Below are positions 4,476 to 33,614 of a stretch of 53,227 bases of DNA, in pieces. The first letter of the stretch is position 1. Each line of letters opens with the position of its first letter. The stretch lies in the NCBI GenBank assembly GCA_014161675.1, contig GCA_014161675.1_4760.2; one strand, written 5' to 3'. The position numbers and the translations under genes were made by a program. This stretch comes from a phage. The notes below the pieces were generated by a model. That model was not told where the DNA came from and made no database searches. It saw nothing but the letters and a program-made list of their open reading frames with translations.

Positions 4476-7400
4476 ATGGCAGATTTTTCTCAACATTTCA
4501 AGGCCACATTTGGCTTTGACGCTGGTAATGAAAAGGTCGTCAATGTAGCATTGGCTGATAAGAATGTCAACACCGATGCGGTCAACGTTGAATTTTTCAA
4601 TTACCATAATGGTATTACTCAGTATGACACAACTCGCGGTTATGATCAATACGGAACTACAATCTATCAAAACCGTCCGTATTATGCAAAAGAAGATATC
4701 ACAAAGCCAGCAGGAGATTTTGACCCGACTAAATGGCAAGCACTGCGCACGGACCCACGTTGGGATTATATTGCAGCAACTTCCGGTGATACTCCTTTAC
4801 AGTCTGGCGATTATATCGCAGCAGATGGTCAATTTGCAAACTTGACTTTCTCTATGCCAACTAAACCAGCAGAGGGAGACACTATAACAGTAAAAGATAT
4901 CGGTGGCAAGTGTGGTGTTAACGAATTATCGTTCTTGAGTACAGGACATGAGTTTTACCATAATGGTAATGTGTATAACAGAAAATGGTATTGCACTACC
5001 CCGTATGCAATGAACTATTTCATCTTTGTTCGGAATCGTTGGCATGTTTATCAGACAGGAACAGAGCCACGCGGTGTGTACGCACAGCCAGCGATTGATG
5101 CTATTCAAATGCAGAATGGTGATCAGGTATTTCGTCGTAGTTCGTTGGGTAATATTACCTTAGTGCTTCCTAAGTTTGCCAACAATGGCGACATGATCCA
5201 GACTACAGACCTTGACGGATTAACCGCAACCAACCACGTTACGGTTAAAGTTCATGAGCACGCAGAAGAACAATCAATTGGCACGTCCGGTCTAAAAGAG
5301 ATTATCGGTAAGCGTAGCGGTCATGGTGTATTCATCTTTGACAAGACGGAAAACTTATGGCGTTTGTGGGATGGTGATCAGTCTGTTCGTCTTAAACCGA
5401 TCATCAATGACACTCGCTTGCAACCTAATAGCTATGTTGCTGTATTTGGTGGTCGTGATGTTACTCTGACGCTGCCGACCAATGTCGAGCCGGGTGATCG
5501 TATTCAAGTTTCTATGCAGTATATGCACGGAAACCAGAATTGCCGTATTATCACCGCCACAGAGGATACAAAAATCCTTATGTCGAAAAACATGGTTCAG
5601 TTTCCGAAGCGTAGCGAGTACCCATTCAACGGGACCGACACATGGAAGGAAGTGTCTGAATTGTCGTTCAATGCGGCTAGTGATTATGTACCTTATCTGG
5701 AGTTCTCTTATTCAGAAGGTGATGATGGTAAGAAACATTGGCTGGTAGCACACGCTCATCCGATCGTAGAACGAGTAGATCCGACTCGTAAAGCGCGTGT
5801 CGGTGTAATTGCACTGGCTACCCAGACTGAAACGAATAAAAACCATGAAGAGAATCCTAGCGACGAAGTTGCAGTAACACCAAAAATGCTGGCTAATAAA
5901 ACCGCCAACGAAACTCGACGCGGTATTGCTCGCATTGCGACTCAGGCGGAAACGCATCAAGATACTGGTTCCATCTTCCTGGATGATGTTATCGTTACGC
6001 CTAAAAAGTTAAATGACTGTGTTGCTACCGAAGCCCGTCGTGGTGTGATGGAAATTGCAACCCAGCACGAAACCAATGAAGGTTTAGATGATACCCGCGC
6101 TATTACTCCTAAGAAATTAGAAGAACGTCGCGCTTCCGAAGATCTCGCTGGTATTGCTGAAATTGTTCAGGCTGGCGGTAGTGCTGCCGCTCGACGTGGC
6201 GAAGCTGGTACAGGGATCTATAACATCAACGACCATGTTAAAATTGTTACGCCACAAAACATCAACGAAGTCAAGGCGACCGAAACTTCCCGTGGTGTTG
6301 GCTATCTGGCAACTGACGCGGAAGTGCAAGGGGCTACAGAATCAACCCCGCAAGATGCTTTACTAATCACGACTCGCACGCTAACGAAACGTACTGCTAC
6401 AGAATCGCGTACTGGTATCGCTGAAATTGCAACTCAGGAAGAAACAAACTTAGGTCAAAGTGATAACCATATCATCACGCCTAAAAAGCTGCATACTCGC
6501 CGCGCAACGGAAACTTTACATGGTTTAGCAGAAATTGCAACTCAGACGGAATTTGACGCAGGTCTTGACGATTCTCGCATTTCTACCCCATTGAAGATTA
6601 AAACCTTCTTTGAGAATGCACAGCGTTTGAAAGTAGATCCGACTCAGGGGCTTAACCTTACTGGTGATTTGTGGCAAGGTATCATGATCAGCGGTCTGGA
6701 TGCAACCGAAGACACAAAAGGTGTCGCTAAAGTTGCTACTACTCAGCTTACGGATGCTGGTCAAGATGATACTACAATCATCACGCCTAAAAAGCTGCAA
6801 GGCAAAAAAGCCACCGAAGGTAAAGAAGGCATTATCCGAGTTGGTACTCAAGCCGAAACCGTGGCTGGTATTATGGACAATGTAGCAATTTCTCCGAAGA
6901 ACTTCAAATATGTTGTTCAGACAGAGGATACATGGAAAGCAACCGAAGCGCGTCGTGGCTTCTTGAAAGTTGCTACTCAGGAAAACTGTTTTGTTGGTGA
7001 TAATCTGCAAGGTTCTACTCAAGAACTAGGAAACTACCAGCATGACGGAATTGCTGTTACTCCGAAAGGATTAAACTACGCACTTGCTAATTTCTTACCT
7101 AAGATGGCAACCGCTCAGAATAGTTTGAAATTGGGTAACGTAGAGGCCGCTAAATGGGCGCGTAGAGACATTGACCAGACCATAGAGAGCAATTATACGT
7201 TTAATAAAAACGTTAACGTGAAGGGCGATTTAGAGTGCTTAAAATCTGGTTCCTTTGAAACTCTGTCTGTGACTAAGAACTCGACCGATGTTCCGAGTAA
7301 TGGTCATCTGGTATTGGGTGAGCGTGGAGTTGACGGTCACACCGGAATTACTCTGCATGGCACAACCGCATCGGAAGGCATGAAAAACTCTTGGTCTATT

Positions 7401-16310: not shown

Positions 16311-16679
16311 TCACTTAACAAAGATTTTCTTTAATGCTTTCAGGATCGTTGCTTCCGGCGCTTCTTCCGGTGGAGGAAGCAATTCTACAACTTCCTCTTC
16401 CAACTCGATATAGTCTACCAGATATTCTACATAGAATGCAAGTGCTTCCATGAAATTAAATGCTACATCCGATTCACCACAAGCGCCTACATGCATTGTA
16501 TAAACATCACTGCGATCAAGTTTGTGGATGCTTCCCAGATAGTTCCGGTTATACCAGACTTCCCACACTTTCAGCTTTCCAGTTTTGGTTGCTGTTTTAT
16601 AATCGGTTTCGTAGTTGTGCAATTGACGTTGCAAATCATTGATAATAACACATTTTTCGTAATTGTTTTGAATTTCCAT
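16311..16679 (-). CDS. Hypothetical protein (122 aa)
   Basis: ORF in the early-gene island. Confidence 0.45.
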   Translation of the reverse strand: MEIQNNYEKCVIINDLQRQLHNYETDYKTATKTGKLKVWEVWYNRNYLGSIHKLDRSDVYTMHVGACGESDVAFNFMEALAFYVEYLVDYIELEEEVVELLPPPEEAPEATILKALKKIFVK

Positions 16680-16689
16680 GATGTAATCC

Positions 16690-16881
16690 TCACTTATCGT
16701 TAAGAAGTTCTAAAACTTTCTGTCGTACTTTGTCAATATTAGTTGATTCAAAAACTGTACGGTATCCCCAGCTTTGACCGTATGATCGCGAGCAATCCCC
16801 ATATCCCCATTGTTCAACCTGATAGTATTCAAGGAATGGGTGCTGCCGAACTATGATACCATCGCGATTAAAAATTACCAT
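16690..16881 (-). CDS. Hypothetical protein (63 aa)
   Basis: ORF in the early-gene island. Confidence 0.4.
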   Translation of the reverse strand: MVIFNRDGIIVRQHPFLEYYQVEQWGYGDCSRSYGQSWGYRTVFESTNIDKVRQKVLELLNDK

Positions 16882-16904
16882 AATATAATCCTCACGTCAA
16901 CAAC

Positions 16905-17192
16905 TTATTTTCGGTTGTGGTCACGATATGTTTTAAAATATCCCTCGTACCACGGTAAAATATCTGGATTTTTACCACTATACAGACCTTTAACCATCAT
17001 GTCAATAAGGCCATCTGGTGTTTGATAGTTTCCAGCTTTTATAAGCTCTCTGATTAAAATCTCTCTGTATATGTCTTTCGGATCTTCGTAATCAACTTGT
17101 ATTGTGGTTGTTGTCTCGCTTAATTTGGTTTCTGGAGTATCTTGCATCGCCTTCCACCAATCTTTTGTAATCTTCATGTTATTGAATTGCAT
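16905..17192 (-). CDS. Hypothetical protein (95 aa)
   Basis: ORF in the early-gene island. Confidence 0.45.
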   Translation of the reverse strand: MQFNNMKITKDWWKAMQDTPETKLSETTTTIQVDYEDPKDIYREILIRELIKAGNYQTPDGLIDMMVKGLYSGKNPDILPWYEGYFKTYRDHNRK

Positions 17193-17203
17193 AATTTAAC
17201 CTC

Positions 17204-17962
17204 TTACTTGCAAACGTATTGATCTACATCAATTGCTCCACCGAATGTGGGATGACGTTTTTCAAATCGAATAGTTCCGTCGTTTGGTTCGAAAACGGAG
17301 TATTCATATAGATCTTTCTTGCCAACATTCTTATAAAACCCGCCTTTAGTCATAACGGTTTCTTGTACGTTTGCTTTGTGTACGTTGTATTCGTCAATGT
17401 ATACAAAATCAACCATCTTCCCATTTTTAATGGTTACTTTAAGATCTCCTGGTTGATTTCCATATTTGGCATACAGTGGCGCTTCTTTAATTTTTGTGGA
17501 AATTCCATCTTTCATACTCCACTCATAACGAACGGTGCATTGATAGGTAAAAGTTTCGACCTTCGGTTCTTCCACCACTTTTTCTTCCTGTTTCGGTTGT
17601 TCTTCGTCAACCTTCACGGAAGTCTCTGAATCGCTTTCTGACGCAGTTTCTTCTTTAGGTAATACATTCATCAAGTTTTGGATTTGAGCGTTGTATACAG
17701 CCTCCAGTGGCTGAATCTGCCCGATATTGATCATTGTATCACGAACAGTTTTATTCCAGTTGCGTTGCTCTTGTTTCAGAGACGGATCAATCTTAACAGC
17801 TTTAACATATACTTCATGAAGTTTAGAGTCCAGTGCGGAGATTGACTCATTAGCACAAATAAACTTCTCTGATTTGGTAGTAGCTTTAGCGCAATCAAAG
17901 GACGCAGCATTAGCACCGAAAGCAGTAGCGGAAAGAACGATAGCAGCGATAATGTTTTTCAT
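17204..17962 (-). CDS. Secreted LprI-like protein (DUF1311-like N-domain plus Cys-bracketed C-terminal domain)
   Basis: 252 aa. Signal peptide MKNIIAAIVLSATAFGANA. Then ASFDCAKATTKSEKFICANESISALDSKLHEVY...QEQRNWNKTVRD, matching the DUF1311/LprI N-domain pattern. Ser/Glu-rich linker, then a C-terminal domain bracketed by Cys (YQCTVRY...QYVCK). Confidence 0.7.
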   Translation of the reverse strand: MKNIIAAIVLSATAFGANAASFDCAKATTKSEKFICANESISALDSKLHEVYVKAVKIDPSLKQEQRNWNKTVRDTMINIGQIQPLEAVYNAQIQNLMNVLPKEETASESDSETSVKVDEEQPKQEEKVVEEPKVETFTYQCTVRYEWSMKDGISTKIKEAPLYAKYGNQPGDLKVTIKNGKMVDFVYIDEYNVHKANVQETVMTKGGFYKNVGKKDLYEYSVFEPNDGTIRFEKRHPTFGGAIDVDQYVCK

Positions 17963-17996
17963 AATATATTCCTCAATGTTTTGTCTTGATGGGAGT

Positions 17997-18025
17997 ATCT
18001 TACTACTCCCTTAATCCGGTGTCAA
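17997..18025 (-). promoter_or_regulatory. Sigma70-type early promoter
   Basis: Minus strand TTGACA (18020-18025), 17-bp spacer, TAAGAT (17997-18002). The -10 lies inside the inverted repeat GGGAGTA/TACTCCC. Followed by GAGGAA and the ATG at 17962. Confidence 0.6.
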
Positions 18026-18032
18026 CTACTTT

Positions 18033-18245
18033 TTAATTTTTACCCGCTCGTGCATTAATACGCATTTTCTGCATAGCCATGATCTGGCTTACAGCTTCTT
18101 CTTTACGTTCTTGCGTGATAACGTGACCAGATTCCGCAAACTCTCCCGCAACTTCTTCTACGATCTCGCGAACTTGAGAACGTCCAAAGATGCGGTTTCC
18201 TTCGTAGCTCATAAACTCTGTTACTACTTGCTCGATAGATTTCAT
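18033..18245 (-). CDS. Hypothetical protein (70 aa)
   Basis: ORF with AGGAGA upstream and its own promoter. Confidence 0.5.
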   Translation of the reverse strand: MKSIEQVVTEFMSYEGNRIFGRSQVREIVEEVAGEFAESGHVITQERKEEAVSQIMAMQKMRINARAGKN

Positions 18246-18275
18246 GTGATTCTCCTTTCGTTTGTTATGGGAGTA

Positions 18276-18304
18276 TGTTACTACTCCCTTATCTTTACGT
18301 CAAC
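18276..18304 (-). promoter_or_regulatory. Sigma70-type early promoter
   Basis: Minus strand TTGACG (18299-18304), 17-bp spacer, TAACAT (18276-18281), embedded in the same GGGAGTA/TACTCCC inverted repeat. Confidence 0.6.
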
Positions 18305-18310
18305 TAGTTT

Positions 18311-18553
18311 TTAGAAATTTTTCGCTTCTTCTTCGGTCATCATCACCGCGCATTCGTGCATAACTTTGAAAACCGGGTCAATCATATCGAATGCTTCGCG
18401 AGACAATTTACGAGAAGCGATTTTGATTGCTTCAACGTCTTCTACTACAGGAACAAAAACAGTTTTCAGTTCGTCGAGCACGGCAGCTTCTTTTTCATTC
18501 AGGAAGATTCCAGCGTCGTACAATGCAACTTCGATAACATTAACTTTAACCAT
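18311..18553 (-). CDS. Hypothetical protein (81 aa)
   Basis: Start placed at the ATG (MVKVNVIEV...) preceded by GGAGGAAAT. The track's longer ORF starts at a TTG inside the promoter and is rejected. Confidence 0.5.
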   Translation of the reverse strand: MVKVNVIEVALYDAGIFLNEKEAAVLDELKTVFVPVVEDVEAIKIASRKLSREAFDMIDPVFKVMHECAVMMTEEEAKNF

Positions 18554-18587
18554 TTTTATTTCCTCCAGTTCGTTTCGGTATGGGAGT

Positions 18588-18616
18588 ATAATACTACCGA
18601 TGACCTTTGGCGTCAA
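18588..18616 (-). promoter_or_regulatory. Sigma70-type early promoter
   Basis: Minus strand TTGACG (18611-18616), 17-bp spacer, TATTAT (18588-18593), then ACTCCCATACC. Confidence 0.6.
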
Positions 18617-18817
18617 CTAGTTTTTGTTATTTCCGTGAAAATTTTTCGTCGCCTCATGTGCTTTTCGCTTGGCTTCTTGTTGTGTTTGCTGGCGTGCTGC
18701 CTCTTGTGAAGCCATAACGGAAGCATTTGCAGCAGTTACAGCCGCTACCATCGCTGCGGTATTAGCATTTACAGTACATGCGCTCGCCAACAAAGCAATC
18801 GCAATCATTTTCTTCAT
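18617..18817 (-). CDS. Small secreted or lipoprotein-like peptide (66 aa)
   Basis: N-terminal signal sequence MKKMIAIALLASAC with a possible lipobox Cys; Ala/Gln-rich mature part; AAGGGGAAA upstream. Confidence 0.5.
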   Translation of the reverse strand: MKKMIAIALLASACTVNANTAAMVAAVTAANASVMASQEAARQQTQQEAKRKAHEATKNFHGNNKN

Positions 18818-18984
18818 AGTTTCCCCTTTAGGTTATCTTCGACCTTCACCCATTCCGCGTATTCTTGCGCGGCTACTTTCGGATTTAGGCCGTCTTCGTA
18901 CATTGCATCAAGTAATTCTTTGTCGGTGGGCTTATACCCTAGATAAGCCTCCACCTGATTTTTCCAAATTTTATACCAGTTCAT
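18814..18984 (-). CDS. Hypothetical protein (57 aa)
   Basis: Start trimmed to the ATG at 18984 (MNWYKIW...) to remove overlap with the upstream gene. Confidence 0.35.
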   Translation of the reverse strand: MNWYKIWKNQVEAYLGYKPTDKELLDAMYEDGLNPKVAAQEYAEWVKVEDNLKGKL

Positions 18985-18988
18985 ATTA

Positions 18989-19261
18989 TCACCAATCAAG
19001 AGCGCGTGTCTCTGCGTCTTCCCATGCTTGACCCATAACAGCCTTGAAAACATATTCTAGAGTATCATCTTTAGAGAATCCGAAGACCTTAGACGGGATA
19101 TCTTCAATTGCTACTCCCGCAACTTCTGCATTACGCGCTTGGCAATAATGCAACTCTAAGTTATCGAGATAGCGACCGCCTAATTTCTCCATATCATCCC
19201 AGCATTTCCAGTAACCTACTTTATCGGCAATTGCTAACACCTTGCTGTTTTTGTTGCTCAT
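18989..19261 (-). CDS. Hypothetical protein (90 aa)
   Basis: Start placed at the ATG (MSNKNSKVLAI...) preceded by AAGGAGA. The track's longer ORF runs through the promoter. Confidence 0.5.
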   Translation of the reverse strand: MSNKNSKVLAIADKVGYWKCWDDMEKLGGRYLDNLELHYCQARNAEVAGVAIEDIPSKVFGFSKDDTLEYVFKAVMGQAWEDAETRALDW

Positions 19262-19292
19262 CTTTGATTCTCCTTTTGTTTGGTATGGGTGT

Positions 19293-19321
19293 ATTATGCA
19301 ATGCTGGATTTGTGAAGTCAA
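19293..19321 (-). promoter_or_regulatory. Sigma70-type early promoter
   Basis: Minus strand TTGACT (19316-19321), 17-bp spacer, CATAAT (19293-19298), then the ACACCCATACC variant of the shared box. Confidence 0.5.
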
Positions 19322-19370
19322 CAACTTTTTAAAATAAAAAGCCGACCACAAGGATCGGCTTAATAATCAG

Positions 19371-19766
19371 TTACTTACTAAATTTCTTTTTGGCTTCGTC
19401 TACTGCATGAGATGCCAGCACCGCTGCCGCATGTGCACTTTTATCTGTGTTGCAGAGAACACCCAGATAAACATCACGCCAAAGTTTAATCATCTCGTAG
19501 ATCATATCAATATCATTTTCTTGTTTGTTGGCGATGCTATTCGTCGTTATCTGGTAAGGCAACGGCTTGATCTGTACTGGTTCAGCCATCGGGCTAATCG
19601 GTTTCGGATCAGTCATAATAGGTGCTGTTGTTGGTGGTGTTTTCCATACGCCATTATTCCACGGTTTAATCGTTGTGTCGTAAAGTTTATAAGGATTTTT
19701 GTCTGGGTCAACCATCCACGCATGATGAGTACCCAAACCATTTGAAGTGATGCGTCGTTCAGTCAT
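19371..19766 (-). CDS. Hypothetical protein (131 aa)
   Basis: ORF in the early region. Confidence 0.45.
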   Translation of the reverse strand: MTERRITSNGLGTHHAWMVDPDKNPYKLYDTTIKPWNNGVWKTPPTTAPIMTDPKPISPMAEPVQIKPLPYQITTNSIANKQENDIDMIYEMIKLWRDVYLGVLCNTDKSAHAAAVLASHAVDEAKKKFSK

Positions 19767-19769
19767 AAT

Positions 19770-19973
19770 TTATTTCCTCTCTGAAAATTCTTTCATCAAG
19801 CTGTCGATCTTTGCTCTGTGTTCTGGTGTGTTTGTCATCTCTGCTAATTTGCTCAGAGATTCAATAGTGATCCGGTTGGCTTCTTCCATAGTCTCAACGA
19901 CCATTGGCACAATCTTTTTATTGTTGTACACAAATGCAATATAACCGCCTTCTGGATATTCTTTCATAATCAA
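19770..19973 (-). CDS. Hypothetical protein (67 aa)
   Basis: ORF; its start overlaps the gene 52 stop (ATGA). Confidence 0.45.
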   Translation of the reverse strand: MIMKEYPEGGYIAFVYNNKKIVPMVVETMEEANRITIESLSKLAEMTNTPEHRAKIDSLMKEFSERK

Positions 19974-21331
19974 CCCTTCTTAAGTTCTTTAAGATCTTTC
20001 TTATATTCCTTCATTGCGGTCGTCTTTGTCCAATACTCATATTCACTATGATGTTTATCGGCATCTTTGACCAGTCGATCATACTCTTCTTGAGTAACGC
20101 TATACAATGGCATAGAAACTAGCTTATCGGCGTATGGACGCAGTTTTTCATGTCCATTGATGGATTGCATTACCTCGGCCTTTTTCTTGCCCTGTAGCTC
20201 GATTTCGCCCTTAATTACGCGGTCGATAAATTCGGCTTTAGCCATTGCATAATTGTATGCTTCCAGCGTTTCCGCTTGCATCAATTCAATGCGTTTATCG
20301 ACATACCCTAATCGGATTTCGACGAATCGACGGATCAGATCGCTCGCTTTCTCGAATACTTCTACTAAACCACGTTCATTAACCACTACGATATTCTGGG
20401 CTACTAACTGTGTTAGTTTAAAATCCTTCATGATTTGCTCATGTCGAGCGGATTCATCTTCGCTTTTGAAATAATCGCGTTTCAGTGTTACTTCAAATCT
20501 GAATCCATCCTTAGAGCAACGGTCATTATATGAGACAATCAGATCTTTTTCTTCCAGTGCATCCAGTACCGCTACATATTCTTCACGGTCGAACTTATAA
20601 GGAACTTCTGATATTGTCAGTTTAGTCTTGCCGTTTAGTTCATATGTACCCTCAAGAATCACACCATCGCGATCATCTCTCGGGATAACTTTACCCGTGA
20701 ATTTCGGGAATTGAACATTAGGTTCTTTATCCAGTTTTCCGGCAAGTGCTAGCTCTGTGCATTCAATGAGGCTTTCCAGTGAATGCGGTAAAATGTCAGT
20801 TTTATACCCTGAAGCAATACCACTAATACCATTAGCCAATACCATTGGCACAACTGGCAAGTAGAACGCTGGCGGGATGTGTTCCAGATCTTCGTGCTTA
20901 GGTGCGCAATTCATATCTTTATAGATTTTAAAGAAGTTTTCATGCACACGAGCAAAGATATAACGTGCCGCTCCTGCTTTCTGGACTAAACGCGATCCGA
21001 AGTTACCTTGACCGTCAAGTAGTGGAGTATTATTGCTCCATGTATTCGCCATGAGTGATCCGGCTTCTACGGCATTAGTTTCGCCGTGGTGATACCCCAA
21101 CTCAGCGACACCAGATCCAATATCTGCCATCTTACGGAATTTCTTACGGTCGCCTTTACTCTTTTGCAAAGCACATTCCATAACAAAGCGTTGCACTGGT
21201 TTAAGCCCATCCACTAATTGAGGAATCCCGCGTTCCTCGGCAGAATAGATCGCATATTCCTTAGCTTCATTATGTACAATGCTTTCAAGGCTGCGGTAAG
21301 TAACTGATTTATTCATCTTCACCTCATACAC
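19970..21331 (-). CDS. 52: DNA topoisomerase II medium subunit gp52
   Basis: 453 aa; recalled T4 gp52 similarity (DGLKPVQRF, GYHHGE, MANTW...PLLDGQGNFGSR, ARYIFAR, IPPAFYLP, KIMKDF). Confidence 0.92.
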   Translation of the reverse strand: MYEVKMNKSVTYRSLESIVHNEAKEYAIYSAEERGIPQLVDGLKPVQRFVMECALQKSKGDRKKFRKMADIGSGVAELGYHHGETNAVEAGSLMANTWSNNTPLLDGQGNFGSRLVQKAGAARYIFARVHENFFKIYKDMNCAPKHEDLEHIPPAFYLPVVPMVLANGISGIASGYKTDILPHSLESLIECTELALAGKLDKEPNVQFPKFTGKVIPRDDRDGVILEGTYELNGKTKLTISEVPYKFDREEYVAVLDALEEKDLIVSYNDRCSKDGFRFEVTLKRDYFKSEDESARHEQIMKDFKLTQLVAQNIVVVNERGLVEVFEKASDLIRRFVEIRLGYVDKRIELMQAETLEAYNYAMAKAEFIDRVIKGEIELQGKKKAEVMQSINGHEKLRPYADKLVSMPLYSVTQEEYDRLVKDADKHHSEYEYWTKTTAMKEYKKDLKELKKG

Positions 21332-26740: not shown

Positions 26741-26768
26741 ATTATAGAGAATCTCCCTTGTATGTCAA
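26741..26768 (-). promoter_or_regulatory. Sigma70-type early promoter
   Basis: Minus strand TTGACA (26763-26768), 16-bp spacer, TATAAT (26741-26746), flanked by the GGGAGA/TCTCCC inverted repeat. The -35 overlaps the stop of the HNH gene. Confidence 0.6.
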
Positions 26769-27328
26769 CTAAAATTTAAAGATGCAAACTCCCCGTGATG
26801 AATTTTTGCATATTCATCATATGCTCTAGCGGCTTCCTCCTGAGTAGCAAACGATCCTATGTATTTTCTGTATCCGTTTATCCTTATTTGTGCTTGCCAC
26901 GGTCTTTTGCTAGATCCTTTGCGATGAGTAACACCATTATATATGCTCGTGCACCCGTCCATTTTCTTTTTATTGTACATGTTTTGTTGTTGTGTTGCCT
27001 CCCGTAAATTTGGTGGATTGTTGTTTTCTGGATTCCCGTCTATGTGGTCTATTACCTTAACCTGTGTTCCATATTCAAGAAACCAGACAATTCTATGTAC
27101 AAGATATGTAGATGTTCTCTTTTTAACCTTATTGTAAACATCTATTGCCAAATGACCGTAATTTAACTTTTTTGTTTTTACTTTATCACCGACTCGGTAG
27201 AAATATCCCTCTGGTAGACCATTAAAAGACGGACTATTTGTTTTGTGATATAGAACACCTTCCGTGTGTTCAAATCTGCGTTTTAATTCCTCTTGAATTT
27301 CAGTATTCCAAAATTTCGCACTTTTCAT
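26765..27328 (-). CDS. HNH homing-type endonuclease with C-terminal AP2 DNA-binding domain
   Basis: 187 aa; HNH motif region HRIVWFLEYG...VIDHIDGNPENNNPPNLREAT, then an AP2-like segment YNGVTHRKGSSKRPWQAQIRINGYRKYIGSFATQEEAARAYDEYA. Stop/start are adjacent to gene 39. Confidence 0.85.
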   Translation of the reverse strand: MKSAKFWNTEIQEELKRRFEHTEGVLYHKTNSPSFNGLPEGYFYRVGDKVKTKKLNYGHLAIDVYNKVKKRTSTYLVHRIVWFLEYGTQVKVIDHIDGNPENNNPPNLREATQQQNMYNKKKMDGCTSIYNGVTHRKGSSKRPWQAQIRINGYRKYIGSFATQEEAARAYDEYAKIHHGEFASLNFS

Positions 27329-27329
27329 A

Positions 27330-29153
27330 TTATGACGCCATCCATGCCTTCCTCATGTCTGAATCTTCGCTATAGAGCAAATCGAATAGCTCTTTATAGT
27401 TTTCCGGTAACGTGATGATTTCCATTACAGGATCGTTGATCACGCGATGATAATCTGATTCTGTAAGAGATGCTAACCCTTTGATATATCGAATGCTATA
27501 ACCTTTGATATTATCTCGGTCGTTCTCGAAATCTTCTAGGTCATAATACCATCGAACATCATCACCTTTCTTTGGTTCCGCAATGATAATAGGTGTTTTG
27601 ATAAACCGGATTCGTCCATCTTCGAACAATTCAGGCCAACGTGCAAAGAAAGAGATCAGACTAGGTTTAATAGACCCGATCCCGTCAGTATCAGCGTCTG
27701 TCATAATCGCAATATTTTTGTATTGCATAACTTCCAATGCATCAACACCAAATTGCAAACCAGTGATCGCCATGATGTTAAAAATTTCGGCGTTCTTAAC
27801 GATCTTTGCCTCCGGTTGTTCCCACGTTGTAAGAGTTTTGCCTCGCAACGGGAAACCTCCATGTAAATCTGGATCACGTACAGAGACCAGATAGTTGATC
27901 GCGGAATCACCTTCCGTCAAAAACAGGGTAGTTTCTGCGTCAGTTCCAATAAGGTTAGCTTTAACGTGTTTTGCTACCTTAGCCCGTTTCGCTGCTTTGG
28001 CTGCCTTAGTCGCTGCCGCTTTATCTGCTGCCTCTTTGCGTGCCAGGACTACAGCAATAATAGGCATGATAATGTTTTCTTTCTTCGCAATGACTTTAGC
28101 CAGCTTTTTAAAATCAAGATCAATATGACGCTTGATATCACCAGTTGGATTAGTCAATCGTTCTTTTGTCTGTGAATCAAAACGAAGGTTAGGCAATTCA
28201 CGAACAATAAGAATACAGGTCAATCCAGACTTAACCGCAGCTTTAGTAACATCAACCTTATGTTCTTTCTTGATTCGTTTTACAATCTCTTCACAAAGAT
28301 CATCTGTCACGTAGTCTACGTGTGTTCCCCCGTTTTTGGTAAACAGACCATTAGCAAAGGATACTGATTTAAAACCTTCTCCCTCGACCGCAGGAACTAG
28401 GGCAAGTGAAAAGTTTTTATCTTCAATGACAAACGGATCATCATTGTATAGTTTAGCATAATCCTTGAACTTACTAACAATACGTTTACCATTAAACTTA
28501 AACGTGATCTTAGGAAAGATTACGCTCAATGATTGCAGACGATCATGAACAATATCTAAAACAGAGTTGTCCATCATATAACCTTCGAAGTGGTCGAAGT
28601 CTGGACAAAATGTAACCTTCGTTCCCTTCAATTTTGATGGTTTTGATGACCATGTGATATTTTCAGCCCCGTTTGTGCATTGAACGGTCATTTCTGTTTC
28701 ACCGTCACAGGTCACACCAGTAAACCAATCGCTAAAGAAATTTGACAACGACGACCCCACACCGTTCATCCCTTGCGTTAATCGATTGGTATCATCAAAG
28801 TTAGACCCTGCTTTTGTTCGTGTCCATGCGGCTACAGGTTGCGGAATCTGCGTACCCTCTGGGGTAGTAACCATATGTTGAGGAATACCGCGACCATTGT
28901 CTGTTACCGTAACAATATTGTTTTGGATATCGACGCTAATCACATTGGCAAATTCAAAGTTAGTGCGGATCGCCTCGTCTACAGAGTTGTCGATGATCTC
29001 ATCAATGATTTTAACCAGTCCAGGAACATATGAAATTTTTGTCCACTTACCGAACAGGAAACGTTGATGTTCTTCGTAAGTTGTTGACCCTATATACATT
29101 CCTGCACGCTTAAGGACATGTTCACGATCAGATAAAATGCGAAACTCACTCAT
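27330..29153 (-). CDS. 39: DNA topoisomerase II large subunit (unsplit gp39 + gp60 equivalent)
   Basis: 607 aa; GyrB-like ATPase motifs (IIDNSVDEA, VTDNGRGIP, GVGSSLSNFFS) continuing into the gp60-equivalent C-terminal region with no interruption. Confidence 0.92.
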   Translation of the reverse strand: MSEFRILSDREHVLKRAGMYIGSTTYEEHQRFLFGKWTKISYVPGLVKIIDEIIDNSVDEAIRTNFEFANVISVDIQNNIVTVTDNGRGIPQHMVTTPEGTQIPQPVAAWTRTKAGSNFDDTNRLTQGMNGVGSSLSNFFSDWFTGVTCDGETEMTVQCTNGAENITWSSKPSKLKGTKVTFCPDFDHFEGYMMDNSVLDIVHDRLQSLSVIFPKITFKFNGKRIVSKFKDYAKLYNDDPFVIEDKNFSLALVPAVEGEGFKSVSFANGLFTKNGGTHVDYVTDDLCEEIVKRIKKEHKVDVTKAAVKSGLTCILIVRELPNLRFDSQTKERLTNPTGDIKRHIDLDFKKLAKVIAKKENIIMPIIAVVLARKEAADKAAATKAAKAAKRAKVAKHVKANLIGTDAETTLFLTEGDSAINYLVSVRDPDLHGGFPLRGKTLTTWEQPEAKIVKNAEIFNIMAITGLQFGVDALEVMQYKNIAIMTDADTDGIGSIKPSLISFFARWPELFEDGRIRFIKTPIIIAEPKKGDDVRWYYDLEDFENDRDNIKGYSIRYIKGLASLTESDYHRVINDPVMEIITLPENYKELFDLLYSEDSDMRKAWMAS

Positions 29154-29256
29154 TATTAAACCTCTTCATAACATAACCATAACTTACTGCAACCGCCACA
29201 AAGACGGCTGCAACAATCATATTAAAAATTGAGTGATTGTCAAGTATATGACTCAT
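29146..29256 (-). CDS. Candidate 36-aa hydrophobic micro-ORF
   Basis: ATG overlaps the FmdB-like stop (ATGA); hydrophobic core MIVAAVFVAVAVSYGYV; its stop overlaps the gene 39 start. Speculative; competes with the promoter call at the same place. Confidence 0.25.
   Translation of the reverse strand: MSHILDNHSIFNMIVAAVFVAVAVSYGYVMKRFNNE
29216..29243 (-). promoter_or_regulatory. Candidate sigma70-type promoter upstream of gene 39
   Basis: Minus strand TTGACA (29238-29243), 16-bp spacer, TATGAT (29216-29221); AAGAGG lies 9 nt upstream of the gene 39 ATG. Confidence 0.4.
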
Positions 29257-29426
29257 GACACGCGCACATTTTTATCATAGTACCCGCCATTAATCCCGCG
29301 CGGGGCAGTCAATCCCTGTTTGCATTCTTTACCACATTCAGGGCATTCTGCCTTTTCCCGCTCGGAAATTTTGCGGATTTTCTGAAATTGACCGTGTTCT
29401 TCACAAGAATAATCGTATAATGGCAT
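29253..29426 (-). CDS. FmdB-family zinc-ribbon protein
   Basis: Start placed at the internal Met (MPLYDYSCEEHGQF...CPECG...), the canonical FmdB-type start with CxxH and CxxC pairs. The track's N-terminal extension overlaps dexA. Confidence 0.55.
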   Translation of the reverse strand: MPLYDYSCEEHGQFQKIRKISEREKAECPECGKECKQGLTAPRGINGGYYDKNVRVS

Positions 29427-29427
29427 A

Positions 29428-30096
29428 TTATCCCCTTTGTTTCTTAACTGAATTTGGATCTGGATTTTCTGGTAGGTCTTCCAGACCCATAGCATAACGT
29501 TGTGCATAGATTAGCATAAGAATATCGCGAGCGCAATCATGAATTGCATCATGTGCGATAAAACCATCTAGCGTACCCATTGGTAACGGACACTCACACA
29601 TCCCGCGATGCATCAATGTACGCTCAATGGCGGTGCGAACATCTCGGATGTTCCAGAATCGCACAGGTTCAAGATTGAACGTCTCTCGTGTATTGTGTGC
29701 ACGGCGGATCATATCAACTAGTAACGGAATATCAAACGCATTACCGCGTGACCACATTACGGATTTAACCGGATCTACTCCTACGGCTTCACAGAATGCG
29801 TTAAAACGCGCTAAACCTTCTTTAGTTGATACTTCCGTACCATTTGTGATTAATTGCTTTCTCATGCCTTCTGAGGCGGTATTCTTCCACCATTCAACTA
29901 CACCATGATCAAACACCCTTACACCTTTCTGGGAAGGAATATCAAATTTTACCAGAAAGGAATTGTCAACCAGTTCTTTAAATGTAGGTGGGTTGTGCGG
30001 ATCTTCTTTAAATCCGATTGCCGCCATATTGATCACCGCCCCATCAGGCGGATAACCTAAACTTTCAAAGTCAATCATTAAATCCACTGGAAGCAT
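29428..30096 (-). CDS. dexA: Exonuclease A (DexA)
   Basis: Recalled T4 DexA similarity (IDFESLG, KFDIPSQKG, EWWKN, FDIPLLVDMIR, FNLEPVRFWNIRD, CPLPMGTLDGFIAHDAIHDCARDILM, RYAMGLED). Start set at the Met of MLPVDLMIDFE. Confidence 0.85.
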   Translation of the reverse strand: MLPVDLMIDFESLGYPPDGAVINMAAIGFKEDPHNPPTFKELVDNSFLVKFDIPSQKGVRVFDHGVVEWWKNTASEGMRKQLITNGTEVSTKEGLARFNAFCEAVGVDPVKSVMWSRGNAFDIPLLVDMIRRAHNTRETFNLEPVRFWNIRDVRTAIERTLMHRGMCECPLPMGTLDGFIAHDAIHDCARDILMLIYAQRYAMGLEDLPENPDPNSVKKQRG

Positions 30097-30097
30097 T

Positions 30098-30340
30098 TTA
30101 AATATCCTCCGCGATATGCCGGAACAACTCCAGATCGTTTTTATCCAGAATGAAACCGCTACAATCAATAATCCCGTTACCGTAATTATCGGTTAACAGT
30201 CGTTCCGTTGCCATGTATGCGCGTACTTTGTTGTTAAAATTCATTACATGTTGTGCATAGTCACAATGAATCTTTTGACGGTTCCACGCGACAATTGATT
30301 GTAGATGTATTACATTAGCCACATTATTAATAACAACCAT
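30098..30340 (-). CDS. Hypothetical protein (80 aa)
   Basis: ORF abutting the dexA start. Confidence 0.4.
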   Translation of the reverse strand: MVVINNVANVIHLQSIVAWNRQKIHCDYAQHVMNFNNKVRAYMATERLLTDNYGNGIIDCSGFILDKNDLELFRHIAEDI

Positions 30341-30341
30341 A

Positions 30342-30509
30342 TCAAAACCCTCGCTTAGTGAAATGCTCGATCATTTTATTGATACATGCAGCTTCACTAT
30401 CGCCGGACACGTTCCAGCCGTATAGACCCCATCTAAAGCACATGGTAACAGTTCCATTGTGACGGCTTACCGTCACATCATTAAATTCTGGGATACTTCG
30501 CATAATCAT
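30342..30509 (-). CDS. Candidate 55-aa micro-ORF
   Basis: AGGAAATT upstream; MIMRSIPEFNDVTVSRHNGTVTMCFRWGLYGWNVSGDSEAACINKMIEHFTKRGF. Below the track cutoff. Confidence 0.3.
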   Translation of the reverse strand: MIMRSIPEFNDVTVSRHNGTVTMCFRWGLYGWNVSGDSEAACINKMIEHFTKRGF

Positions 30510-30519
30510 AATAATTTCC

Positions 30520-31911
30520 TCAAATATAGTCTACTCGATACCGCGCACGGGTAACACCCACATATAATAACTGCATTGCCAGTTCAAAGTCAACATTGTC
30601 TGTACACATGCAAGGAGTATACAGGAACACGCGGTCTACGCTGATCCCTTGTGACTTATGAATGGTGCAAGCTGGTAATGCTTTTACATTCAAGAACATA
30701 CGCTTCATCGTCCAGAAGGAATCCCAATCTGGTTTAAATTTTGGATTCTCTTTCTTCATTTCGCGATATTGTCCGGCGACCGTATTCAGATAGATAGAGA
30801 AAATGTTCTTCTGACGTTGTTCTGTCAGAATGTTGATTTCTACTAAATCTGGTTTATCTGTAGTGATTCCGACTGCATCTAAACCGACTTTCTGATTTAG
30901 GATTTCTTTGTCTTCGTCATCATCGACGCTTTCCACTTTCAGAGTATATCCTAAAACTGGTTGCGGATCTACCCCCGTGCAACGTAATGTAAATTCACGC
31001 GGGATGACCTCTTTAACTCGGATCATCTCACCATTGTTAAAAATAACATTGGGAATCTTCTTCCCGCGTTCATCTCGCAGATATTCGATCAATGGTTCCT
31101 GAGTAACCAGAATTTCATCTACAATCACTGGTTCATCGGTGTTATAAACGCGCTTACGCACAATTTCATTGAGTTTTTCGACGCTCTTGTTAGTGTAGGC
31201 CAGAATACGGTTTTCTAGAAGGTCTTCCGGCGTTTTAACGGTTTCGAAATAATGCTTCATAAACTCCGGCAGAGTTGAGCTATGGAATACACCCTCGTTA
31301 CCGCACTGCTTTTCGAATACCCATTTACCATTACGGACAGCGGTCGCCACATCAATGATCGGTGCATTAGATCGTTTAATTTCTGTGAGTTCTACATTCT
31401 GGAATCTTTCATCGGTGAAGAAAGGAGAGATCGACGTTGCACCGCTCGGATCAACTGGTCGTAACTGGTGCGGATCGCCCACGGCAATAATAACAATTCG
31501 ACCGTTGATACTCTTCATGAGAATATCAAATAGTTTCTTATCGACCATACTCGCTTCATCAACAATGATGATCTGAACATCATCTAGCTTAGGAGTATCT
31601 TTTTGCTCAAATACTTGAGTATCTTCATAGTTGGTCGGGTTTAGTCGCAGTAGTGCATGTAAAGTAAATGCTTGACGACCTACCGCTTTACTCAAAACTT
31701 TTTTAGCCTGGTGGGTAGGCGTTGCCAAAACCACACCAGTTACACCACGGCGGACCATTTCCTGAACAATGAATTTCATCATTGCGGTTTTACCAGTACC
31801 CGCCGCACCACGGACAGTTGTATGCTTCTTTTGTTCAATGCGTTTCATTAGAACATCAAAAGCATGTTTTTGCCCGTCTGTTAACATATCGAAAGTTAAT
31901 ACTCTGCTCAT
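30520..31911 (-). CDS. dda: Dda DNA helicase (SF1B)
   Basis: 463 aa; recalled T4 Dda similarity (LTDGQKHAFD, GAAGTGKT, ATPTHQAKKVLSK, VDEASM, EIKRSNAPIIDVATAVRNGKW, LPACTIHKSQG, LLYVGVTR). Confidence 0.92.
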   Translation of the reverse strand: MSRVLTFDMLTDGQKHAFDVLMKRIEQKKHTTVRGAAGTGKTAMMKFIVQEMVRRGVTGVVLATPTHQAKKVLSKAVGRQAFTLHALLRLNPTNYEDTQVFEQKDTPKLDDVQIIIVDEASMVDKKLFDILMKSINGRIVIIAVGDPHQLRPVDPSGATSISPFFTDERFQNVELTEIKRSNAPIIDVATAVRNGKWVFEKQCGNEGVFHSSTLPEFMKHYFETVKTPEDLLENRILAYTNKSVEKLNEIVRKRVYNTDEPVIVDEILVTQEPLIEYLRDERGKKIPNVIFNNGEMIRVKEVIPREFTLRCTGVDPQPVLGYTLKVESVDDDEDKEILNQKVGLDAVGITTDKPDLVEINILTEQRQKNIFSIYLNTVAGQYREMKKENPKFKPDWDSFWTMKRMFLNVKALPACTIHKSQGISVDRVFLYTPCMCTDNVDFELAMQLLYVGVTRARYRVDYI

Positions 31912-32225
31912 TATCCTAAAATCCTCACCTTGCGAACACAGATAGTATTGAGTTCTCGCCGTACCCGTTCTTTTTCATATTCAGGAATTTTATATTCGAT
32001 ACCATCCCGAACAATTTCAGAAGACCGGATTATGCCAAATTTTCGTTTAGGTACAACCTTGTATTTCGGTTCACCCGCCAATAGACTCTCACAATAATCT
32101 ATCTGATCACACATTGACGCTAACGCAGCATCATGTGTTTCGCAAGTTAGGACGCGACCTTTCGCGTCCACTGAGTATTGAAAGAATCCGTCTTTATCAC
32201 GATAACATACAGCAAATACATGCAT
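31911..32225 (-). CDS. Hypothetical Cys-rich protein (104 aa)
   Basis: ORF with ATGA-type coupling to dda. Confidence 0.45.
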   Translation of the reverse strand: MHVFAVCYRDKDGFFQYSVDAKGRVLTCETHDAALASMCDQIDYCESLLAGEPKYKVVPKRKFGIIRSSEIVRDGIEYKIPEYEKERVRRELNTICVRKVRILG

Positions 32226-32980
32226 TATAAACCTACCTTCGCTTTCATCAATTCAATCCACGACGCATCAATCGGAAGCCCGTATTTCACGCGTTCTTTT
32301 TGTGCTGGCGTTAAGTTCTCATACTTAGAAAGAGATTCAATCAAAACGCTGGTATATTTTAGCACGATTTCGGTATTGTTTGCAATAGCCTTAAGTTTTT
32401 CCTCTTTCTTGTTGATTTCGCTAAGTGCTTGCTTGAGATCTGCAATTTTCTGATAACGTTCTTCCATACGGAAGAGAGTATTTTTAATCGCTCGCTCGGC
32501 TGCCTCTGCTTTCTCCGGTTCGTTGTGCTTTTTGTGGCGCTCGATTGCTAATTTCTTTTCTTCGATTGCCATTTCCTGATTTTTGATGCGATTCTCGTTA
32601 AGTTCGATCCACTCGATGTACTTCGCACGTAGGGCAATTTCATCATCAGAAAGTTTACCTTTAGTTCCCAGTTCCTGGATCTCTTTAAGAGATTCGATAG
32701 TGTGATTGCCACGGAAAGAATTGTATTTCAGTTTAACCGGAATTACATTGCCATCAACATATCCCAGATTGCAATCAATGCGCTCTAAGGAGAGTCCGTC
32801 ATCACCTTCACCGAAAGCCTCACCTGAATAGGCACAATGAGTCTGACGGTAAATGTTACGAACAGTGACTAAGCTCATAGAGAAGTCTTTGTTGCGACGT
32901 GAAGCACCAGCCATGATAGAGTTCAGCCGGAAAACAACCAGCGCCAATTCTTCGTTAGATTTAAAAGCAAACAGTTTCAT
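32225..32980 (-). CDS. Hypothetical protein with degenerate HNH-like N-terminal signature and coiled-coil C-terminus (positional counterpart of T4 srd)
   Basis: 251 aa; N-terminal CAYSGEAFGEGDDGLSLERIDCNLGYVDGNV resembles an HNH core with the catalytic His replaced; the C-terminal half is Glu/Lys-rich. Position after dda matches T4 srd, but identity is not verified. Confidence 0.4.
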   Translation of the reverse strand: MKLFAFKSNEELALVVFRLNSIMAGASRRNKDFSMSLVTVRNIYRQTHCAYSGEAFGEGDDGLSLERIDCNLGYVDGNVIPVKLKYNSFRGNHTIESLKEIQELGTKGKLSDDEIALRAKYIEWIELNENRIKNQEMAIEEKKLAIERHKKHNEPEKAEAAERAIKNTLFRMEERYQKIADLKQALSEINKKEEKLKAIANNTEIVLKYTSVLIESLSKYENLTPAQKERVKYGLPIDASWIELMKAKVGL

Positions 32981-33009
32981 AATTGATTCTCCTTAGTTGG
33001 TATGTGTGT

Positions 33010-33041: not shown

Positions 33042-33545
33042 TTAAATTAAAGAAAATTTGTAAATCTCTATCAGATCGCCGTTACACGCGTAAACTTCCT
33101 CGATCTCATCAAGGATCATGGTCGTCCCTGTCTTGTATATGCACTCGCGCTCATCTGCCAACATAGCATACAAAGACAGTCGAGTAGTCGGATTGTCATA
33201 CTCTTTAGACACCACTCGGTCAATAGCATGTTCGTAATAATTCATGCAAGGCTTGGTAGGTTTTATTGCAATAATCTTTCCTGTTGCATAAACATCGGTC
33301 GCAAAGTCCTCTGCTGTTGATTGCAGTGGCGTAAAGCTCATAGGACGCTCTACAACGAAAGAATCACCTACAATTAAGGTATCCAGCTTACGGCCTTCTC
33401 TTTTGCTCACACCGCGATACAAGGCTTCATGATGCACTAACCGCTCAGTCTTTTCAATCAATCCATTAAGGATCGACATATCGATATTTTCTTTAGAGTT
33501 CATCACTTCATCAATGATGTTAAGTTCTTCTGGTGTAAATTGCAT
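33042..33545 (-). CDS. Putative ADP-ribosyltransferase-like protein (positional counterpart of T4 modA/modB)
   Basis: 167 aa with R-S-ExE-like spacing (ALYRG, SFTPLQST, ADERE); position between the srd-like gene and gene 56. Weak assignment. Confidence 0.35.
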   Translation of the reverse strand: MQFTPEELNIIDEVMNSKENIDMSILNGLIEKTERLVHHEALYRGVSKREGRKLDTLIVGDSFVVERPMSFTPLQSTAEDFATDVYATGKIIAIKPTKPCMNYYEHAIDRVVSKEYDNPTTRLSLYAMLADERECIYKTGTTMILDEIEEVYACNGDLIEIYKFSLI

Positions 33546-33547
33546 AA

Positions 33548-33577
33548 TAAAAAAGCCTCCAATCTTTCGACGGGAGG
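33548..33577 (-). terminator. Terminator-like hairpin that contains the ribosome-binding site of the next gene
   Basis: Minus strand GCCTCC-12 nt loop-GGAGGC followed by TTTTTTATT and then the ATG at 33545; the downstream arm GGAGG doubles as the Shine-Dalgarno. Confidence 0.5.
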
Positions 33578-33614
33578 CATAATAAAACCATTATAGAGTA
33601 TTGTCAACTAATTT

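Follow-up and report, generated by a model that had tools for sequence, protein, structure and literature searches.

Stem-loops at the 5' terminus stabilise E. coli mRNAs, as in the case of the ompA 5' UTR. In phage T4, the start sites of genes e, soc, 49 and I-TevI are hidden in long transcripts but accessible in those initiated from a nearer promoter. Closest to the locus considered here are the PeSL (promoter-early stem-loop) cassettes, described in RB49 and phi1 (Arbiol et al. 2010, PMC2839356; Comeau et al. 2014, PMC4122927). The account of Arbiol et al. (2010) gives roughly 51 PeSLs in five subclasses, one of which carries the stem-loop downstream of the −10 element, and reports that the stem-loops lowered downstream expression in a reporter. 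A stem of the Gn-loop-Cn form is described as 'frequent' and not as obligatory.

The window, that is, the whole stretch of 53,227 nucleotides that was analysed, is the genome of a Krischvirus (RB49-like T4-type coliphage) with its genes on the minus strand. We propose that the 99 nt separating genes 39.2 and 39 are probably a compact early promoter-hairpin cassette of the PeSL kind, and that the open frame running over them is most likely its by-product. The features of the locus are as follows.

27330..29153, minus strand: gene 39 (fused 60+39), DNA topoisomerase II large subunit, identity confirmed
29143..29261, minus strand: 119-nt invariant block, beginning 18 nt ahead of the −35 and reaching codon 4 of gene 39, defined by alignment
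29146..29256, minus strand: 36-codon open frame MSHILDNHSIFNMIVAAVFVAVAVSYGYVMKRFNNE, annotated as RB49p006.1 and phi1p006.1; phrog_25974
29161..29166, minus strand: Shine-Dalgarno sequence AAGAGG of gene 39, 7 nt ahead of the ATG; SD energy −6.5 kcal/mol
29167..29183, minus strand: GTTATG tandem repeats, about 2.8 units, at the 3' end of the block common to all relatives
29187..29213, minus strand: RNA hairpin detected by fold energy, 11-bp stem TTGCAGCCGTC / GGCGGTTGCAG with three G.U pairs, loop TTTGT
29216..29221, minus strand: −10 hexamer TATGAT, 16 nt after the −35
29238..29243, minus strand: −35 hexamer TTGACA, consensus match
29253..29426, minus strand: gene 39.2, 57-aa zinc-ribbon protein, orthologue of T4 gp39.2, annotated as 39.2 in RB49 and phi1

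Probable promoter and hairpin upstream of gene 39

From the stop codon of gene 39.2 (29255-29253) to the ATG of gene 39 (29153-29151) the spacing was measured as 99 nt, in agreement with the stretch of about 100 bp given in a preliminary description of this DNA, every feature of which was found in its place on the minus strand. The motif TTGACA-N16-TATGAT, proposed there as a promoter for gene 39, is indeed present, with a match at 11 of 12 positions, the best among 11 hits in 27000-33000. In the whole window, 24 sites with at least 11 matches were detected, every one of them on the gene-sense strand, whereas shuffled sequences give about 1.7 for the two strands together; the 16-nt spacing occurs in seven of these 24. 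The strand-exclusive excess of near-consensus promoters argues against chance as the source of an 11/12 site so suitably placed. As judged from its sequence, this site probably acts as a sigma-70 promoter, and its spacing would place the transcript start at about 29208-29210. The promoter is missing from the published prediction of RB49 early promoters (Nolan et al. 2006, Additional file 3) and from the regulatory annotation of GEC-3S, the nearest annotated promoter upstream being about 4 kb away. A search of the literature found no RNA-seq study of a Krischvirus.

The RNA hairpin, an element absent from the preliminary description, begins 2 nt after the −10 on the gene-sense strand. Its folding energy is −18.3 kcal/mol (z −5.05), a value reached by none of 200 shuffles, while the antisense strand gives −7.9; in the minimum-energy fold the hairpin widens to 29184-29216. 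For a transcript from about 29209, folding predicts a 7-bp stem at the very 5' end with no single-stranded overhang, so that the RNA, with its start placed by promoter spacing, would resemble the ompA type in opening with a base-paired stem. A metagenomic variant (29192 T>C) converts a G.U pair of the stem into G-C. The same order of a −10 followed by a hairpin was found at three further strong promoters (39928, 44683 and 33607; z −3.9 to −5.2). This layout strengthens the promoter reading, as does the finding, given below, that the block stays joined to the genes inserted downstream. Against Rfam, the region 28900-29700 gave no match at E<=1.

The hairpin could also be read mainly as a terminator or attenuator of the dda-dexA-39.2 transcript, with a fortuitous sigma-70 match and gene 39 expressed by read-through only. 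A consensus scan lists the hairpin as terminator-like, and the reduced reporter expression caused by PeSL stem-loops would agree with such a role. An intrinsic terminator, however, combines a G+C-rich hairpin with a U-tract, and only the hairpin was found here: the sequence that follows the stem, UAAGUUAUGG, with the tail UAAGUUAUGGUUAUG, includes no U-tract, and the TransTerm predictions for RB49 contain no terminator at the hairpin. A terminator in front of an essential replication gene, with the nearest annotated promoter so far upstream, would leave gene 39 poorly expressed, and the strand-exclusive excess of promoters speaks against a chance match. Termination as the main function is thus very improbable; as a part of the promoter-hairpin cassette, the hairpin may have a stabilising or attenuating role.

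A 7-nt complement, UCACUCA / UGAGUGA, links the promoter spacer to the start codon of gene 39. As in T4 e, soc, 49 and I-TevI, the promoter is embedded in a structured region immediately ahead of its gene, and read-through transcripts cover the gene as well. Masking of the gene 39 start on read-through RNA, through pairing of the spacer UCACUCA with AUGAGUGA, was therefore considered as a candidate and rejected. When the core hairpin was kept and its flanks were shuffled, the shuffled flanks folded equally well (z −0.31, 178/500). The predicted accessibility was mixed (SD 0.67 vs 0.34; AUG 0.32 vs 0.59), not consistently higher on the short transcript. In this respect gene 39 differs from the T4 genes, masking being unsupported by folding.

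Comparison with PeSL cassettes

The locus shares with PeSLs the phage genus and the combination of a near-consensus sigma-70 promoter (TTGACA-N16-TATGAT here; TTGACA, about 17 nt and TATAAT in PeSLs) with a stable stem-loop overlapping or adjacent to it. The cassette likewise lies between the stop codon of one gene and the SD and start of the next, at a junction of gene insertion, deletion or replacement, as marked here by endonuclease insertions. The location of the stem-loop downstream of the −10 corresponds to a described subclass. On the other hand, the 24 nt upstream of the −35 (GTGCGCGTGTCATGAGTCATATAC) are 50% G+C, where PeSLs are typically AT-rich; an A-run is found further upstream, at 29269-29275 within 39.2. 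The stem is not of the Gn-loop-Cn form, the cassette sequence is unique, no second copy of the block being found in the window, and its conservation is far above that of the other cassettes tested. In addition, the authors who described PeSLs annotated an ORF (006.1) over this cassette and did not call it intergenic.

Gene 39.2

The product of the gene upstream had been described as an FmdB-type zinc ribbon of 58 aa. The family assignment is correct in terms of Pfam, as the protein matches Zn_ribbon_8 over residues 1-36 (E=3.2e-12; 46.7 bits, cut-off 34.4); the length needs correction to 57 aa, the figure of 58 being codons with the stop included. The gene has its own Shine-Dalgarno sequence, AGGGGA (SD energy −7.8 kcal/mol), and 16 of its 17 segregating sites fall at codon position 3. 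The protein is 39% identical to T4 gp39.2 (BLASTP, E=8e-11), and relatives were detected by tblastn in 885 phage records, T4-type for the most part. Common to the Krischvirus and T4 proteins are the N-terminal motif MPLYDY.C, the CP.C knuckle, the Pfam family and the neighbourhood upstream of gene 39. They differ in the first knuckle, which is C-x4-C in T4 and C-x2-H here (C8-E-E-H11, followed by an intact C28-P-E-C31), and in the C-terminal 20 residues, which are unlike each other; in T4, moreover, gene 39.1 and a 100-nt gap are located between 39.2 and 39. Where a zinc ribbon of this family would have two CxxC knuckles, a comparison of six phage homologues showed invariance at C8, C28 and C31 only.

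T4 gp39.2 (NwgI) is reported to be a small GroEL modulator (Ang & Georgopoulos 2012, as cited in PMC5153855). GroEL modulation is reported there for the T4 protein only, to which the Krischvirus 39.2 is likened by sequence and position. The name 'FmdB-like transcriptional regulator' attached to 39.2 is a propagated one; among studied proteins, the one nearest to it is reported as acting on GroEL and not as a transcription regulator. In RB49 and phi1, annotations already existed for both 39.2 and the micro-ORF downstream.

Invariance of the block and insertions at its edge

Among 14 aligned Krischvirus sequences, no segregating site was observed in 29143-29261, the next longest invariant run being 48 nt, whereas dexA, 39.2 and gene 39 contain about 10 segregating sites per 100 nt in the same comparison. 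The block is identical in 57 of 59 public Krischvirus records; 39.2 is identical in none of them (94.7-99.4% identity). Outside the micro-ORF, polymorphism returns within 6 nt on the upstream side and 4 nt on the downstream side. Only three close loci were found in IMG/VR, and Serratia and Cronobacter phages provide no comparison for the block because other genes separate 39.2 from 39. We considered whether such invariance is normal for promoter cassettes, and rejected this since the other cassettes vary at the background rate, with 0-10 variable sites per 84 nt in four genomes.

A precise insertion of homing-endonuclease genes separates the block from gene 39 in 14 of the 59 records and also in metagenomic contigs. 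These genes are of the Endonuclease_7 type, in two alleles, or of the HNH_3+AP2 type. The insertion junctions lie after 29167 or after 29156, with the block upstream unchanged, and altogether three junction types with two endonuclease families were found at the 3' edge. In the endonuclease-bearing genomes the 5' end of gene 39 is strongly recoded. Two haplotypes of 39.2, GGGTACTATGAT and GGGTATTACGAT, adjoin the same block, in genomes with and without an insertion alike.

These insertions raise the question of whether the invariance is non-functional, resulting from repeated homing, gene conversion or a recent sweep linked to the adjacent endonuclease site. Two unrelated endonuclease families at one edge would fit this explanation, as would the recoding at the start of gene 39, a typical mark of donor sequence that was co-converted, and the patchy divergence of these genomes. 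The sharp return of polymorphism on both sides of the ORF, however, argues against it, and with two 39.2 haplotypes beside the same block, the converted tracts would need the identical two endpoints every time. Homing endonucleases, besides, usually settle beside sequences that are conserved for other reasons. Taken together, an origin of the invariance in conversion or a sweep is quite improbable.

The 36-codon open frame

For the same stretch, a hydrophobic micro-ORF of 36 codons, coupled on both sides, had also been proposed. The frame itself is confirmed, being open and annotated; its translation is doubtful. ORF006.1 was added to the RB49 annotation by Arbiol et al. (2010, PMC2839356). 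Its ATG overlaps the TGA of 39.2 as ATGA (29256-29253), and its TGA sits 8 nt inside gene 39. The peptide would have a hydrophobic 21-residue core (Kyte-Doolittle 19-residue maximum 1.99) between polar ends, with KR on the C-terminal side. If it is a genuine gene, reinitiation after 39.2 would yield a peptide of 36 aa that crosses the membrane once and functions early, and the promoter and hairpin would coexist with it or be incidental.

Several observations are consistent with such a gene. ATGA and 8-nt overlaps are common in T4-type gene chains, the hydrophobic core with polar flanks has the form of a membrane segment, and curators entered the ORF. Among about 75 sequences the frame is interrupted in a single one, and it stays open in the variant L027, which has a 6-nt deletion. 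The amino-acid changes observed (S>N, V>L and V>A) are conservative for a membrane helix. Dual coding would also help to account for the unvarying positions of the spacer and the tail.

Other observations weigh against translation. The start/stop overlap expected for a coupled small gene is present, but no Shine-Dalgarno sequence: the SD energy is +0.6 kcal/mol, a value that stands alone among 33 CDS starts, the next weakest having −2.8. In one record, LF73P4, the frame is shifted by an apparent 1-nt deletion in the T5 run. The deletion in L027 is in frame automatically, because exactly one 6-nt GTTATG unit is lost. Only four rare substitutions are known in the micro-ORF, three nonsynonymous and one synonymous, against 1:16 in 39.2 (Fisher p=0.012), and one of the four strengthens the stem (G.U to G-C). 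In the insertion-bearing relatives, unrelated tails take the place of the last six residues, and the length of the A/GA-run sets the ORF end at 36, 37 or 43 aa or leads to an in-frame endonuclease fusion, as in MIZ4. By tblastn against 50,697 phage records (E-value limit 10), no homologue was detected outside Krischvirus, and a protein search with the 43-aa variant of JK32 gave four Krischvirus clusters and nothing else.

Two further lines of evidence for coding were set aside. The codon-usage score of the micro-ORF, 0.255, is above those of all 61 off-frame stretches inside genes, yet five of 27 frames in other non-coding gaps reach 0.17-0.36, and the codons of the hairpin drive the signal. 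Nor is an open frame over a promoter gap special, since five of nine other, shorter promoter gaps are also fully open. A genuine gene for a membrane peptide is possible but doubtful. Most likely, as far as the sequence comparisons indicate, ORF006.1 is a by-product of the cassette and probably encodes no selected peptide.

The invariance of the block nevertheless goes beyond what this reading accounts for. Because other cassettes vary at the background rate, a promoter and a hairpin alone are insufficient for total invariance over 119 nt, and about 60 block positions outside the hexamers, the stem and the SD would be expected to vary. If the block overlapped a translated frame, this discrepancy would shrink but persist. 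The micro-ORF and the promoter had been described as not mutually exclusive, and in this the preliminary description is supported. That the same 111 nt are used in all three ways, as an early promoter, a hairpin and a translated 36-aa membrane peptide, is unlikely.

Discussion

The cassette between 39.2 and 39 is most likely an ordinary early regulatory element. Straight after infection, unmodified host RNA polymerase would read the near-consensus sigma-70 promoter, and transcription would begin at about 29209, within the 5' arm of the hairpin. With its start inside this arm, the gene 39 mRNA would therefore open with a 5'-terminal stem-loop, which is expected to shield it from 5'-end-dependent decay; a good Shine-Dalgarno sequence and then the topoisomerase gene would follow. 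On the longer operon transcripts of srd, dda, dexA and 39.2, the full 11-bp hairpin would form and may attenuate read-through. Ribosomes terminating at the 39.2 stop may enter the 36-codon frame. The hydrophobic core of the micro-ORF corresponds to the hairpin in translation.

Gene 39 of RB49-type phages thus probably has its own early promoter, which is lacking in published lists, and caution is advisable with the ORF that many GenBank records show over the cassette. If, in contrast, promoter, hairpin and peptide were all in use, the ribosome traffic of the peptide would open the hairpin and couple translation of 39.2 to that of gene 39, and the stacking of signals would account for a block in which no base varies among about 55 phage isolates, next to genes that differ at one site in ten. 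The block might serve in Krischvirus as a conserved anchor for PCR or engineering and is convenient for testing how overlapping signals constrain phage sequence. It is a repeated landing site for two homing-endonuclease families, and complete nucleotide invariance of this kind, in a phage genus that diverges fast, is rare.

Gene order and features upstream of gene 39

A megablast search with positions 28900-29700 matched 59 phage records at 90-99.4% identity, all of them Krischvirus (RB49, phi1, JSE, GEC-3S, and relatives). The minus-strand gene order is the same as in RB49: dda, two or three small ORFs, dexA, 39.2, ORF006.1, and gene 39, the last being the fused 60+39 gene for the large subunit of topoisomerase II. 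The following features were located.

29253-29426, minus strand: 39.2 zinc-ribbon ORF, 57 aa, with a good Shine-Dalgarno (SD) sequence and a Pfam Zn_ribbon_8 match above threshold
29146-29256, minus strand: micro-ORF of 36 codons; its ATG overlaps the 39.2 TGA and its end lies 8 nt within gene 39
29243-29216, minus strand: promoter motif TTGACA-N16-TATGAT, 11/12 match
29213-29187, gene-sense RNA: hairpin with an 11-bp stem and a 5-nt loop, beginning two bases past the -10
29167-29183: GTTATG tandem repeat of about 2.8 units, in the tail after the hairpin

The preliminary description had proposed an FmdB-like zinc-ribbon protein upstream of gene 39, followed by a frame coupled on both sides and by a promoter sequence. 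Each of these was present, and its hedged interpretation as micro-ORF, promoter, or both holds; the hairpin was missed. GenBank already contains both ORFs, under the names 39.2 and RB49p006.1/phi1p006.1. The latter was added by Arbiol et al. (2010) from the comparison of phi1 with RB49, and forms a separate PHROG with function unassigned there.

The 39.2 protein is 39% identical to T4 gp39.2 (E=8e-11), and relatives were detected by tblastn in 885 phage records. T4 39.2 was reported to be a modulator of GroEL (Ang and Georgopoulos 2012, as cited in PMC5153855). Across an alignment of six phage homologues, invariance is limited to C8, C28, and C31, with H, D, or a shifted C at the fourth ligand position; in the window protein, the first knuckle is C-E-E-H (C-x2-H; codons 8-11, 29393-29405) and not CxxC. 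The RefSeq name 'FmdB-like transcriptional regulator' derives solely from the Pfam family name. Elsewhere in these genomes, the DNA polymerase gene 43 is annotated as two pieces around a 274-aa ORF in Cognac (16373-20165) and ECD7 (16549-20341), and as one undivided 2.7-kb gene in GEC-3S and phi1.

Invariance of the putative promoter-hairpin block

Of the 45 records carrying the 111-nt micro-ORF sequence at full length, 44 showed 100.0% identity, and in 13 of the other 14 records its first 90-92 nt were identical. The adjoining 170 nt of 39.2 showed 94.7-99.4% identity and was identical in no record; the 39.2 protein is identical in 55 records despite the nucleotide differences. When 14 sequences were aligned over 2839 nt (dexA through gene 39), 279 segregating sites were found; each gene had about 10 per 100 nt, with 85-94% at codon position 3. 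None was located in the block between 29143 and 29261, and this run of 119 nt is the longest invariant one in the alignment, the next being 48 nt. An ordinary coding region alone would predict about ten synonymous polymorphisms in the block, and a promoter, stem, and SD alone would predict a variable spacer, loop, and tail; therefore neither alone fully explains the degree of invariance. Other promoter cassettes vary in these genomes (0-10 variable sites per 84 nt among four genomes). The invariance of the block is the one unusual property of this site.

Rare variants of the micro-ORF sequence (L-numbers denote compared phage records or metagenomic contigs)
JEP8: G>A at 29252; micro-ORF S2N
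L028: G>T at 29199, in the hairpin loop; V20L
L027 (metagenomic contig): T>C at 29192, G.U pair to G-C; V22A
L027: loss of exactly one GTTATG unit plus one synonymous change; in-frame 6-nt deletion
LF73P4 (L008): T5 run in the promoter spacer (29224-29228) shorter by one T; frameshift

The ratio of nonsynonymous to synonymous substitutions was 3:1 in the micro-ORF versus 1:16 in 39.2 (Fisher p=0.012). A single-base deletion in 39.2 of Brandy (equivalent to 29305) alters the C-terminus; this and the LF73P4 deletion could be sequencing errors in homopolymers.

Probable promoter and hairpin

The 53-kb window contains eight perfect and 16 eleven-of-twelve matches to the sigma-70 consensus. Every one of these 24 is on the gene-sense strand, the opposite strand having none, against about 1.7 expected for both strands together from shuffles. 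Strong selection for near-consensus host promoters is therefore evident in this phage, in agreement with what has been published for RB49 and phi1. Examples on the minus strand are at 42657, 39928, 26768, 25784, 23826, 3804, 1445, and 351; about half of the 24 lie within coding regions and not gaps, such as 25784 inside rIIA.

The hairpin was folded from gene-sense RNA at -18.3 kcal/mol (z -5.05; 0/200 shuffles), whereas the opposite strand, in which the three G.U pairs become mismatches, folds weakly (-7.9). The predicted transcript start near 29209, the usual 7 nt past the -10, lies inside the 5' arm, and a 7-bp stem would remain right at the 5' end of the transcript. Hairpins of comparable significance follow the -10 by 0-6 nt at three other strong sites (39928, 44683, and 33607). 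In the modB-56 gap (33534-33607), directly 5' of gene 56 (dCTPase), a hairpin comes immediately after a strong promoter; the SD (GGAGGC) is within the 3' arm of this hairpin, and a six-T run then comes just before the ATG. The promoter thus appears to lead directly into a structure resembling a terminator.

On long transcripts of T4, some genes are masked. The minimum-energy fold of the read-through RNA resembles these, with the promoter spacer paired with the gene 39 start region. Masking of this start was rejected: shuffled flanks folded equally well when the core hairpin was kept, and accessibilities failed to separate short and read-through transcripts.

Exactly such a composite was described in RB49 and phi1 as the promoter-early stem-loop (PeSL), in which a promoter and a stem-loop together occupy the space from the stop codon of the preceding gene to the SD and start codon of the following one (Arbiol et al. 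2010, PMC2839356; Comeau et al. 2014, PMC4122927). In one of the five PeSL subclasses, the stem-loop follows the -10, as here. The site differs from typical PeSLs in that G+C makes up 50% of the 24 nt upstream of the -35 and in that its stem lacks the Gn-loop-Cn form. Nolan et al. (2006) do not list it among their early-promoter and terminator predictions for RB49, and the regulatory annotation of GEC-3S does not include it. On balance, the evidence points to a functional PeSL-like early promoter with a 5' hairpin, and promoter function by itself is, in our unquantified judgement, quite likely. As such, the site belongs to a known class, of which it is an ordinary example.

Coding potential of the micro-ORF

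In GEC-3S, pairing between SD and anti-SD was computed at each of the 33 starts annotated within the first 22 kb. Only the micro-ORF start shows no pairing (+0.6 kcal/mol; next weakest -2.8), and most starts fall between -6 and -9 kcal/mol, genes overlapping a neighbour among them. Its codon usage (log-odds of 0.255 bits per codon) is gene-like in comparison with off-frame stretches within genes. This score was rejected as a sign of coding, as values of 0.17-0.36 are reached in other non-coding gaps by 5 of the 27 frames. The signal comes mostly from the ten hairpin codons (0.52 vs 0.15 for the rest), and the hydrophobic core VAAVFVAVAV is no more than the stem-loop sequence read as codons. 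Fully open frames are common over promoter gaps (5/9 shorter gaps). That the micro-ORF encodes a selected peptide is a rather doubtful proposal, in part compatible with the promoter reading.

Insertion of endonuclease genes downstream of the block

An additional gene is inserted between the block and gene 39 in 14 of the 59 records, and likewise in several metagenomic contigs; loci with such insertions are L004, L005, L007, and L039 (at about 1590-2340), L029-L034, and L006 (at 1611-2150). Two unrelated homing-endonuclease gene families have entered at 29156-29167: a 242-aa Endonuclease_7-family protein with two alleles (86% identical), which differ in the 5' junction (after 29167 or after 29156), and a 179-aa HNH_3+AP2 protein in phiS. 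The inserted gene carries its own SD or reuses AAGAGG. The upstream block is unchanged in all insertion-bearing sequences, so the promoter-hairpin block behaves as a unit driving whatever is downstream. The last six micro-ORF codons are swapped for unrelated tails, so that the ORF is 36, 37, or 43 aa long or, in MIZ4, is fused in frame to the endonuclease; the ending is set by the length of an A/GA run.

In the endonuclease-bearing genomes, the first 100 nt of gene 39 is heavily recoded (29050-29153 compared with L004, L005, L007, L029, L039, and L006), and the N-terminus reads MSEFLLLDDRAHCLKRPS... or MTDFLILSDREHVIRRPH..., as compared with MSEFRILSDREHVLKRAG... in the window. Such recoding would be expected if this stretch were cut by the endonucleases and protected from them in the donor allele, and it suggests a putative cleavage site in the 5' end of gene 39 and an immune donor allele.

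Immediately downstream of gene 39, kvi (L025) and JSE (L026) have a 187-aa ORF (4599-5162, versus about 26760-27330 of the window). RB49, GEC-3S, and the window have ORF005 at that position, with a promoter/terminator pair annotated in front of it, and the difference is a case of gene replacement at a PeSL.

Taken as a whole, the site is probably a functional early promoter with a PeSL-like 5' hairpin, serving gene 39 and any inserted endonuclease gene, and the overlying ORF is of doubtful translation. Its sole notable points are the complete invariance of the block and its repeated use as a landing site for homing endonucleases.
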